This document shows, piece by piece, positions 6,001 to 9,000 of a DNA stretch of 14,693 nucleotides. This DNA is from a virus (taxonomy: Duplodnaviria; Heunggongvirae; Uroviricota; Caudoviricetes), in IMG/VR virus record IMGVR_UViG_2541047965_000006. One strand, given 5' to 3'. Numbering within the stretch: position 1 is the first letter of the stretch; the number at the start of each line of letters is the position of its first letter. The position numbers are program-made.

Positions 6001-9000
6001 TAACGAGCATTACCGCGTGATGCGCTGGACAGATTCGACAACAAACCGGCTTGTCACTATGGCTGTGCCTTGCTGCGGAATAGGCGACAGTGACGGCTGG
6101 CGGTTACTGAAAGCCAACGGGCTTAAAGTCACGACAAACGGAAAACACAGGATCCCCCTGGCTGACTGGATGCAGTTAGGCGGACAGCATGAGGAATGGC
6201 ACTTAAGCACGAAGGCTGGCTGGCATTCTGGCGCGTATATCATGCCGGACGGTTCGGTTATCGGCGAATCTGACAAGCCCGTTTTGTTTACCGGAAAAAG
6301 TGCCGCGATTAACGGTTATTCCGTGGCGGGTACGGCGGATAGCTGGCGCGACAGCGTGGCGCGGCTGGCTGGTGGCAATCCGTTCATGATGCTGGGTATA
6401 GCGACGTCATTATCCGCACCATTAGTCGGGCTGGTCGGTGCTGATGGCTTTGGCGTGCATTTTTTCGAAAACTCCACGGCAGGCAAGACCACAACGCAGA
6501 GCATCGCATCGAGTTTATGGGGCGATCCTGAAGCGCTGCGATTAACCTGGTACGGAACGGCGCTGGGGATAGCTAACGAAGCAGAAGCACACAACCACGG
6601 GCTTTTACCACTGGATGAAATAGGACAGGCAGGCAGTCCACGTGATGTGTACGTATCGGCTTATACGCTGTTTAACGGCTTAGGGAAATTGCAGGGGGCA
6701 AAGGATGGCGGCAACAGAGAGCTAAAAAACTGGCGCACAGTCGCTATCAGCACCGGAGAAGTGGACATTGAAACATTCCTCAAAACCGAGGGGATCAACG
6801 TCAAGGCGGGACAGCTTGTCCGCCTGCTCAATATCCCGATCCAGAAAGCCACGCAGTTACACGGATACGCGAACGGGAAGGATCACGCAGATGCGTTAAA
6901 AGCAGCATGGAAAGAAAACCACGGCGCAGCGGGGCGTGAGTGGATTAAATGGCTGGCAGCCCACCAGCAGGAGGCAAAGGATACGGTAAGGGAACACCGC
7001 GAACGGTGGCGGAACCTGATACCAGAGAGCTACGGCGAACAGGTGCACCGCGTGGGTGAGCGATTCGCCATTCTGGAAGCTGCGCTTGTACTGTCCGGCC
7101 ATGTAACTGGCTGGTCCGTGCAGGAATGCCGCGATGCAATTCAGTATGTATTTAATGCCTGGGTAAAAGAATTTGGCACGGGTAACAGGGAGTTTAAGCA
7201 GATGGTTGAGCAGGCGGAGGCGTTCTTGTCGTCGTTCGGGTTCTCACGATACCTGCCCTACCCGAACACCGACGAGCGCGATTTACCAATCAAAGACCTT
7301 GCCGGATACAGAAAGGGGAGTATCAGAAACGAAGATGACGAGTTCCGCTTTTACACGTTCCCACATGTATTTGAGAAGGAGATAGCCCACGGCTTCAACC
7401 CATCCCACTTTGCACGTGTGTTAAGTGCCGCCGGAATGCTGGAAACGGGTAACGATCGCCGCTACAAGAAAAAGGCGCTGGGCAAGATTGGAGGTAAGCA
7501 GCATGTATTTTACGTGTTGATGTTCCAGCCAGAAGAGGAGGATTAATTTTTTTCTCACGTGTGAGGGTAGAAAGTTGCGGGTTATGCGGGTTATTTCTGT
7601 GGATAAATCAGTATCCATATGATTATTAAAGGAATGACAGGAAAATCGTAACCCGCAAAACACCAAAAATAACCCGCAAAACGGCAGTTATAACCCGCAA
7701 AAGTGCGATCATAACCCGCAGATGAATAACAGGAAGTGACAGCTGCAAACAGCCACGCGTAACCCGCAGAAAAAACCCCGTTTGCGGGTTATTTTGAGCA
7801 TTTTGCGGGTTACGCACTGGCTGAAAAATATACAGGTCATTTTACAACATACTGATATTAAAGGATAAAAAATACTTAGCAGGCTAAGATAACCCGCTAA
7901 CCCGCATAACCCGCACTGTTTTGTATATATAGAGAAAATTGAGGTGACAAATGACCATAAAACGCAGAGACAGAACAGAGCCGAAATATCGTGCGTCAGA
8001 CATGACAGCGAAGCACACAAAAAACCACAATTCTGTGGTGAAGTTCGTATCTGCCCGTGGCAGGCCATCGCTTTTGGTGCCAGGCGAACATCTGCACTAC
8101 TGCGATGAAAAACATATCCCGATCCTGATTGTCTGGAAGCGCACGGTATACGCCGATGTAACATGGCTGAATGACTCGCTGGTATTGATACACCGTGACC
8201 TGTTTGAACGTGAAGAGTTCAAATGTCGTCCCAAAAACACCCCGATGTCGTCCCAGAATGTTGTAATGTCGTCCCACTTCGCGGAACGTGTTTTGAATTA
8301 AATCAATATGTTACGTGAAGTGGGACAACTGGGACAACTGGGACGACATGGTTTTGTATATATATACAAAAAAATAAATTGAGAGGATGAATTTATGAGC
8401 GAAATTACTGTTAAAAATATCTCACCTGCGATAGCTGGCTGGTGGGCGAAGTTCAGAGACGACGACGGCACGGAATGGTACAGCCCGATTGCTGCATGGG
8501 CGCTTTGTGAGGTCAATTATCTCAATACGGGGAATACTTACCGCGAAATCTTACCCGTACTGACCAGTGAACTGGGTATGGGGCCGCACCACTCCGATGA
8601 AGGATATTGCGCATGTCTGTATCTGCCTGATGAAAAGTTCACGCTCTCCGGTGAGCAGGGTTCTTTTGCCTGGTATCCGGTGAACGGCAACAGTGACAAC
8701 CATCAACGTTAAAACCGGAGAGCAGATAGCATGACAGCACAGATAGCCGCTTACGGGCGGCTGGTGGACGACCCACAGGTAAAACAGACCAGCAAGGGTA
8801 CACCCATGACGCTGGCACGGATGGCGGTATCCGTACCATGCCATAACGCAGACGACGGACAGGCGACGCTATGGCTTGCCGTAACTGCCTTTGGTAAGCA
8901 GGCCGACGCGCTGGCAAAGCATCACAAGGGTGATCTCCTGAGCGTGGCGGGTAACATGCAGATAAGCCAGTGGACCGGACAGAACGGCGAGACGCGGCAG

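Follow-up and report, generated by a model that had tools for sequence, protein, structure and literature searches.

The replication proteins (Reps) of staphylococcal pathogenicity islands (SaPIs) are self-loading initiator-helicases whose C-terminal winged-helix domain reads the iterons located immediately 3′ of the rep gene, and these iterons flank an AT-rich region on both sides, in opposite directions (PMC9371898). For the phage-inducible chromosomal islands (PICIs) of Gram-negative bacteria (GN-PICIs), where such a Rep is named Pri-Rep in the PICI literature, the primary report describes an origin organised as in SaPIs, with iteron sets flanking an AT-rich region 3′ of rep; according to the same report, a rep-ori plasmid derived from the island EcCICFT073 yielded colonies at the restrictive temperature, while a rep mutant yielded none and an ori deletion significantly fewer (PMC6092414). 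Here, a candidate origin of this kind is described in IMG/VR virus record IMGVR_UViG_2541047965_000006 (Caudoviricetes), a stretch of 14,693 nt that was analysed as a whole and is referred to below as the window. It is considered highly probable that positions 7547-7950 of the window represent the vegetative replication origin of a PICI, and that the 709 aa DUF927 protein encoded directly upstream is its initiator-helicase, homologous to SaPI Rep.

According to the proposed mechanism, the last ~110 residues of Rep would recognise the 9-mer TAACCCGCA, and Rep would assemble on the opposed iteron sets flanking an AT-rich centre, with the TAA ends of the sites directed inwards, before melting this centre and loading itself as the replicative helicase. 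Because Rep would be self-loading, DnaA/DnaC-dependent loading of DnaB would be unnecessary. The array would comprise two such units, designated here as module A (7576-7720) and module B (7783-7915), with a TA-rich tract following module B. The region is best classified as a PICI/SaPI-type origin of a DUF927 Rep, and not as a plasmid-type, DnaA-dependent iteron origin. The anatomy of the array, the homology of Rep, the conservation of the layout and the covariation between the iteron and the Rep C-terminus were all observed, and the last three lend good support to the original prediction, in which the array had been put forward as a candidate origin that would be bound by the upstream Rep.

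Anatomy and conservation of the iteron array

Within 7576-7915, the 9-mer TAACCCGCA was found in 11 perfect copies and one copy with a single mismatch (TAACCCGCT at 7890). Eight copies are located on the plus strand (7649, 7670, 7691, 7712, 7760, 7890, 7898 and 7907) and four on the minus strand (7576, 7585, 7783 and 7804), with an exact 21 bp phase at 7649/7670/7691/7712 and at 7783/7804, in agreement with the original prediction of twelve phased copies in both orientations. Exact copies are expected by chance ~0.003 times in 340 bp. When one mismatch was allowed across the whole window, 16 matches were obtained, compared with 3.6 on average and at most 11 in 200 dinucleotide-preserving shuffles of the window, none of which (0/200) reached 16. 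The first copy begins 29 nt past the rep stop (7546), i.e. just downstream of the gene, as had been stated. The array and its borders are composed of the following elements:

7547-7575, no strand assigned: junction from the rep stop to the first iteron, with a CTCACGTGTGAGG-type motif that is conserved in the alignment of rep 3′ ends and recurs in Enterobacterales relatives
7576-7720: module A as a whole, with two inverted contiguous copies, a 55 bp AT-rich centre and four copies at 21 bp
7576-7593, minus strand: left arm of module A, two contiguous iterons; this '< 9 <' start is present in 9/11 layouts
7594-7648, no strand assigned: AT-rich centre of module A (GC 0.31), a candidate melting site
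7598-7606, minus strand: perfect DnaA box TTATCCACA, reading TGTGGATAA on the plus strand
7649-7720, plus strand: right arm of module A, four iterons in 21 bp phase
7760-7791, no strand assigned: central inverted pair '> 24 <' (24 bp from start to start); a '> 23-25 <' pair is present in 6/11 layouts
7783-7915: module B as a whole, with two inverted copies at 21 bp, a 77 bp AT-rich centre and three tandem copies
7783-7812, minus strand: left arm of module B, two iterons in 21 bp phase
7813-7889, no strand assigned: AT-rich centre of module B (GC 0.32, minimum 0.20), a second candidate melting site
7890-7915, plus strand: right arm of module B, three tandem iterons (2-6 copies in relatives)
7916-7950, no strand assigned: TA-rich tract CTGTTTTGTATATATAGAGAAAATTG and ribosome-binding site (GC 0.29), followed by an ORF at 7951

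Both copy-flanked spacers are AT-rich relative to the window (GC 0.50), as originally described, and the minimum within 7813-7889 extends over 40 bp. In a nearest-neighbour stability scan of the 14.7 kb window in 30 bp stretches, 7813-7889 ranked as the third and 7594-7648 as the sixth least stable. Inverted iteron sets around an AT-rich centre, the hallmark of PICI and SaPI origins, thus occur twice, as modules A and B, and in both modules the TAA end of every site points to the AT-rich centre. Such two-fold symmetry would be expected if two helicase assemblies were loaded, one to each side of a melting site. GC skew (900 bp) was shown to track repeat orientation only and is uninformative on the direction of replication. 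The TA-rich tract itself (CTGTTTTGTATATATAGAG...) spans 7916-7940, directly 3′ of module B, and is kept after every E. coli module B, including copies that are distant from rep.

The sites are conserved to a greater extent than the DNA between them. In an alignment of 20 distinct origins with adjacent modules A and B, 27% of the columns within iterons were variable, compared with 81% elsewhere (Fisher p = 2e-22), and in the O157 relative all 9-mers were found at the same positions, with diverged spacers. A common blueprint of 10-12 sites, '< 9 < ~52-65 > (11 or 21) > 21 > 21 > ~45 > 24 < 21 < ~50-93 > 9 > 9 >', was observed directly after rep in 11 loci ranging from E. coli to Pseudomonas, which use ten different 8-9-mers:

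TAACCCGC: E. coli (the window and its relatives)
TAACCCAC: Klebsiella
TAACCCGT: a metagenome contig and Sodalis
TGGGAC(A/G)A (TGGGACRA): E. coli NCTC9112, L079 and E. albertii
TGAGGCAA: L082
TGAGACAA: L084
TGAACCAA: L081
TGGTACAA: Pseudomonas lundensis
TGAAACCA / TGAAACTA: Symbiopectobacterium (L007)
TGAAACCCA: Symbiopectobacterium (L006)

The two modules can be separated. In E. coli SM107 and 042, rep is followed by module A alone and then by SSB; in 042, whose PICI (L015 2226-17456) sits inside a prophage terL gene, module B is located ~8 kb downstream, past terL and a few hundred bp from the island end. Among IMG/VR contigs, A and B are adjacent in nine loci and split by 7.8-10.7 kb in seven, where their relative orientation is unchanged and B lies close to the contig end. 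A census of module B, bounded by the available locus length, identified it in seven of the eight non-adjacent loci with at least 8.5 kb downstream, the one locus without B having 10.5 kb. This splitting parallels the ori/crr pair of satellite P4, a resemblance that may serve as a lead, not as a result.

Rep and the covariation of its C-terminus with the iterons

The rep gene has a full-length ORF, and two contigs encode the identical protein. Two intervals of the gene are relevant here:

5417-7546, plus strand: rep, encoding a DUF927 initiator-helicase of 709 aa with Pfam, PDB and PHROG matches
7229-7543, plus strand: C-terminal ~105 residues of Rep, a putative iteron-specificity domain delimited by the drop in identity to Reps with other iterons

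The sole Pfam match on the protein is DUF927 (residues 158-437, E 7.7e-43). Searches against PDB returned 8tch ('Pathogenicity island protein', E 4.5e-15) and 5dgk (Cch, 'Active helicase', E 2e-4), and PHROG 1139 ('DNA primase') was matched with E 4.6e-161. The protein upstream of the array is accordingly a helicase of the SaPI-Rep type (DUF927/MCM-like), and no Rep_3-type domain was detected with Pfam in the 18 window ORFs scanned.

Comparison of Reps in 50-residue bins revealed where this protein follows its iteron. The E. albertii Rep shares 64-96% identity with the window Rep at residues 151-600, and 42, 32 and 22% over residues 601-709, whereas Reps that use TAACCCGCA are 78-98% identical at 601-709 even where their first 150 residues are only 28-44% identical. 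Comparative data point to P0001 as the cleanest case of covariation between Rep C-terminus and iteron, as its Rep is 90% (N-terminus), 92% (core) and 34% (C-terminus) identical to that of the window, and TGGGACAAC is the iteron it uses. The variable stretch, basic in character, follows a conserved GFN..FA..L..AGML helix. Overall, the ten iteron sequences map onto Rep C-terminal types, and only the last ~110 residues follow the iteron.

At the DNA level, the window and the P0001 island are homologous (89.7%) through rep up to 7228 (Rep residue ~604), show no homology over 7229-8000 and are homologous again from 8001. This break implies that the only contents of the swapped block are the C-terminal part of Rep, the array in full and the first 50 nt of the next ORF; by its content, no gene other than rep is linked to the iteron type. 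The interval 7229-8000 thus represents a single recombined cassette of Rep C-terminus and array. Taken together, the alignment footprint, the layout, the specificity comparison and the cassette suggest that Rep, acting through its C-terminus, would by a wide margin be the most plausible binding protein of the array.

At its opposite end, the N-terminal ~160 residues of Rep (5417-5900) share 64% identity with the N-terminus of the primase-family protein of EcCICFT073 (L086 8242-8730), and AlphaFold predicted a confident alpha/beta fold at residues 20-128. The shared N-terminus, combined with an unrelated remainder, indicates one N-terminal domain common to two helicase families.

The DnaA box, the second iteron family and alternative readings

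Two perfect DnaA boxes are present in the window, at 7598-7606 and 12630-12638, both on the minus strand. The former, which had been part of the original prediction, was confirmed as TGTGGATAA, the reverse complement of TTATCCACA; the latter (TTATCCACA) is far from every repeat array. The position just past the left arm was surveyed in 30 distinct module A sequences of the E. coli TAACCCGCA, or type-I, origins: 25 fit TTATNCACA, reading TGTGTATAA (the oriC R2 sequence), TGTGGATAA or TGTGCATAA, and five read TGTATATAA or TGTGTGTAA, with one mismatch each. The box columns are conserved no better than the surrounding spacer, and no DnaA box was found at the equivalent position in type-II, Sodalis, Pseudomonas or Symbiopectobacterium origins. 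As judged from these alignments, the box appears to lie outside the conserved origin design and to be confined to the E. coli TAACCCGCA clade. It is probably auxiliary, and may assist initiation in E. coli from the edge of centre A.

A second repeat family, TGGGACGA (type II), is represented in the window by two clusters:

2795-2936, no strand assigned: orphan A-type TGGGACGA module, '<< AT >>>>' at 21 bp
8226-8371, no strand assigned: orphan B-type TGGGACGA module, '<<< AT >>>' at 8226-8347, then TA-rich tract TTTTGTATATATATAC

The former shares 86% identity with the module next to rep in NCTC9112 and L079, and the segment 2746-2958 matches the final 30 nt of a type-II rep together with its module A; upstream of 2795, tblastn detected no type-II rep coding remnant, only the last few codons and the junction motif being present. 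The latter is homologous to L079 4844-5003, and 8234-8700 matches a type-II module B with its next ORF. Complete 12-site arrays of the TGGGACGA family are located directly after a Rep with a type-II C-terminus in NCTC9112, L079 and STEC316, and 29 complete E. coli genomes have a DUF927 gene whose 3′ end is overlapped by A-type TGGGACGA sequence. These similarities indicate that the two clusters are the halves, 5.3 kb apart, of an orphan type-II origin, left over from recombination and not cognate to the window Rep. The orphan halves also explain a 49 nt, 98% inverted repeat (2858-2906 / 8231-8279). The claim that two iteron families imply two encoded specificities was consequently not sustained, since the window encodes one Rep with one C-terminal type. 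STEC316 (L087 14877-15031) represents the mirror case, in which a type-II replicon coexists with a second, decayed island that ends in an orphan TAACCCGCA module B. In addition, the core consensus of integration host factor (IHF), of which four sites were found in the window, occurs in both type-II AT-rich centres (AATCAATGAATTA and AATCAATATGTTA, at 2824 on the minus and 8301 on the plus strand) and in neither of the TAACCCGCA centres.

The original prediction had regarded the locus as a classic iteron-dependent arrangement, i.e. a plasmid-type origin at which Rep and host DnaA open the AT-rich region and DnaB is loaded via DnaA/DnaC. Four sites in 21 bp phase do resemble plasmid iterons, and the perfect DnaA box at the edge of centre A is kept in most E. 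coli type-I origins. This reading is nevertheless rather improbable, as the initiator lacks a Rep_3/RepA-type domain and belongs to the DUF927/SaPI-Rep type, described as self-loading (PMC9371898), and as symmetrical inverted sets are a SaPI/PICI signature; moreover, the same layout occurs without the box in Pseudomonas, Symbiopectobacterium, Sodalis and type-II origins, the box carries a mismatch in 5/30 type-I alleles, and its limited distribution and conservation are those reported above. A Rep operator or regulatory array, which would end rep transcription or control the downstream SSB-ProQ-PerC operon, was assigned a similarly small likelihood. Such a role would be consistent with the position of module B, which ends 35 bp upstream of the next ORF, with the conserved TA-rich tract that always follows B, with the occurrence of module B apart from rep and with the stable RNA hairpin formed by the central inverted copies (-29.2 kcal/mol, z -4.6). 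However, the central inverted pair was rejected as a terminator, as no plus-strand terminator was found in the scan and the T-run after the hairpin is lost in the type-II array, and a promoter at 7916-7950 was rejected, as the TA-rich tract contains no sigma-70 consensus. Detached B modules, furthermore, have no downstream ORF, and the layout agrees with origins shown to be functional in SaPIs and EcCICFT073. As regulation could coexist with origin function, this explanation is only partly a rival.

In phage lambda, cosB consists of inverted sites around a bendable AT-rich centre. The array resembles this layout, and in split islands module B is located at the island end, past terL, as might be anticipated for a packaging (cos/pac) or partition site bound by a terminase small subunit or a ParB-like protein; against this, the window contains no terminase or partition gene, the array is also found after rep where an island's packaging modules are unrelated or absent, and the only part of any gene that covaries with the repeats is the Rep C-terminus, rendering such a function extremely improbable. 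It is also very unlikely that the array, though intact in appearance, is a non-functional remnant of an island that is mosaic and in decay. Decay would be in line with the lack of packaging genes in the window, its truncated J gene, its partly duplicated Rha gene and its orphan origin halves, along with the persistence of orphan modules in other genomes, yet rep is full length with an identical protein on two contigs, 11 of the 12 iterons are perfect and the 12-site layout is complete.

A PICI/SaPI-type origin served by the DUF927 Rep is therefore the preferred interpretation, against which several considerations weigh. The fold of the C-terminal domain is poorly predicted: mean pLDDT was 54 for the AlphaFold model of full-length Rep and 49 for that of the C-terminal 149 residues alone, with values below 50 in this domain in both models, so that the predicted order helix-helix-beta-hairpin is compatible with a winged helix but unreliable, and a profile of the domain retrieved a chance match only (E 1.4) among PDB sequences. 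The EcCICFT073 origin, for which experiments exist, is that of another helicase family, which shares only residues 1-163 of Rep (64% identity). For this element, we infer binding, melting, replication and self-loading, as well as separate roles of A and B; this interpretation does not account for the role of module B, which can sit 8-11 kb from rep and exists in orphan copies. Finally, mosaic structure and a degraded late region characterise the island, so that its replicon could be intact in an element that can no longer be mobilised.

The host island and its relation to known systems

A stretch identical to the window is contained in NCBI assembly GCA_000461615.1, where it is found between yejM/tRNA-Pro(GGG) and the gene of a response regulator; from the neighbouring genes, we take the latter to be narP. 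All of its genes are on the plus strand, in the order of a tyrosine integrase (incomplete at the window start), an AlpA-like helix-turn-helix (HTH) protein (1559-1816, bit score slightly under the Pfam cut-off), a Rha-type regulator, an Ash-family ORF, DUF4222, the 709 aa DUF927 Rep, two small ORFs, SSB, ProQ/FinO and PerC, and, at the 3′ end, a C-terminal fragment of a lambda-J-like tail tip protein and a Q antiterminator. Capsid, packaging, terminase and partition genes are absent from the window. PICIs are recognised by an integrase, AlpA, a single direction of transcription, a specific att site and a size of about 10-20 kb; the window has the integrase, the AlpA-like HTH, PerC and SSB next to tRNA-Pro, all on one strand, and the gene order agrees with the integration, Bro/immunity, replication and late zones of GN-PICIs (PMC10111431). 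The window thus represents a PICI-type satellite integrated at tRNA-Pro (proL). Related sequence was detected in ~300 complete E. coli genomes, in every case on the chromosome, and the relatives in O157:H7 and 042 are PICIs with capsid, portal and terminase genes in addition.

Several other features of the island were recorded. Within the Ash-family ORF (3611-4687), Rfam identified a C4 antisense RNA (77.6 bits) and isrK (51 bits) at 4256-4444, a pair that constitutes P4-like RNA-based immunity on a PICI. Upstream of the AlpA-like ORF, AAAAACGG(T/C)GG..AC occurs three times (1136-1154, 1506-1524 and 1526-1544), and these copies may be binding sites of a regulator. The 550 aa ORF at 10347-11999 corresponds only to the C-terminal, receptor-binding half of a lambda-J-like protein (Phage_Tail_Tip and Ig_GpJ_C), and is followed by the Q antiterminator at 12960-13361; both may be the remnant of a prophage or late genes captured from a helper. 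A helper-embedded PICI, prompted by the J fragment, was rejected, as the island is located at tRNA-Pro, outside any prophage gene. Around the Q gene, the 17 bp palindrome TTACGAAATTTTCGTAA is present three times (12275-12291, 12884-12900 and 13579-13595; two perfect and one 88%) and looks like an operator. The Rha gene is partially duplicated (2135-2177 / 3092-3134, 43 nt, 91%), and the ORF at 7951-8301 is apparently chimeric, with 50 nt of type-I sequence at its 5′ end, an internal part (8001-8220) corresponding to an ORF of the L079 island and a 3′ end that enters the type-II repeats; the Rha duplicate and this ORF are both scars that recombination has left in a mosaic island.

This type of origin is already well described, and the analysis does not alter how PICI replication is currently understood. 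What is new is the comparative evidence, i.e. the blueprint with its ten iterons, the covariation between iteron and Rep C-terminus, and the 7229-8000 cassette. A full-text literature search for the TAACCCGCA 9-mer returned no relevant paper, and published work may cover only in part the two-module anatomy, the cassette of C-terminus and iterons, and the orphan split origin. The origin and its likely specificity determinant have been located for one group of E. coli satellites, including the capsid-carrying PICIs of O157 strains. The table of Rep C-terminal types and iterons provides naturally occurring swaps of specificity, with which the reading of origins by self-loading helicases can be studied, and the iterons offer a simple sequence marker for PICI replicon typing and for predicting which islands may cross-replicate.

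A wider and speculative reading, which is considered unlikely although less so than the alternatives weighed above, is that the PICI origin is an obligatory two-part device with Rep-mediated looping between A and B, and that orphan halves enable origin piracy or incompatibility between satellites. If this were true, module B could exert its effect from the island end over a distance of 8-11 kb, in a manner similar to P4 crr. As Rep C-terminus and iterons would move as a cassette, islands would accumulate orphan halves of foreign specificity, such as the TGGGACGA pair, and these halves would allow the Rep of a co-resident satellite to replicate the island, or would soak up that Rep.

The iteron plasmids (pSC101, F, P1, RK2 and R6K) share phased repeats, an AT-rich region and a DnaA box with this locus, but they employ another initiator family and a single direct array instead of symmetrical inverted sets, and the DnaA box of the window appears not to be conserved outside its E. 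coli clade. In P4, the primase/helicase-type alpha protein binds repeated short sites at two cis elements, ori and crr, which may be kilobases apart. Like P4, the window represents a satellite replicon with C4 RNA immunity, and its modules A and B may be two cis elements of a similar kind; they are, however, adjacent here and split by 7.8-10.7 kb only in relatives (seven loci). Unlike in P4, the Rep is not a homologue of alpha (having no Toprim or D5 Pfam match), and the P4 type I iteron TGTTCACC is absent from the window.

Closer resemblance was observed to other PICIs. The O157 PICI (L001), which has its own capsid and packaging genes, carries TAACCCGCA sites at the same positions; the late region of the window differs from that of capsid-carrying PICIs in having the J C-terminal fragment and Q instead of capsid and terminase genes. 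EcCICFT073 encodes another helicase family and uses GGTAGACA iterons, but its origin starts alike, with two contiguous inverted iterons (TGTCTACC) after the stop codon, an AT-rich stretch and opposing copies. GN-PICI origins (Fillol-Salom et al. 2018, PMC6092414) share with the window the location 3′ of pri-rep, the opposed iteron sets and the order int, AlpA, rep, SSB, PerC. Compared with SaPIs (Qiao et al. 2022, PMC9371898), whose iterons are penta- or hexanucleotides with one AT-rich centre, the window has 9-mers with two centres, and its clade has Gram-negative hosts and a DnaA box. In both systems, however, the Reps are homologous by sequence (8tch), 6-12 iterons are located directly after rep, at least two opposed iterons are present on either flank of the AT-rich region, and specificity resides in the C-terminal domain, as indicated here by comparison.

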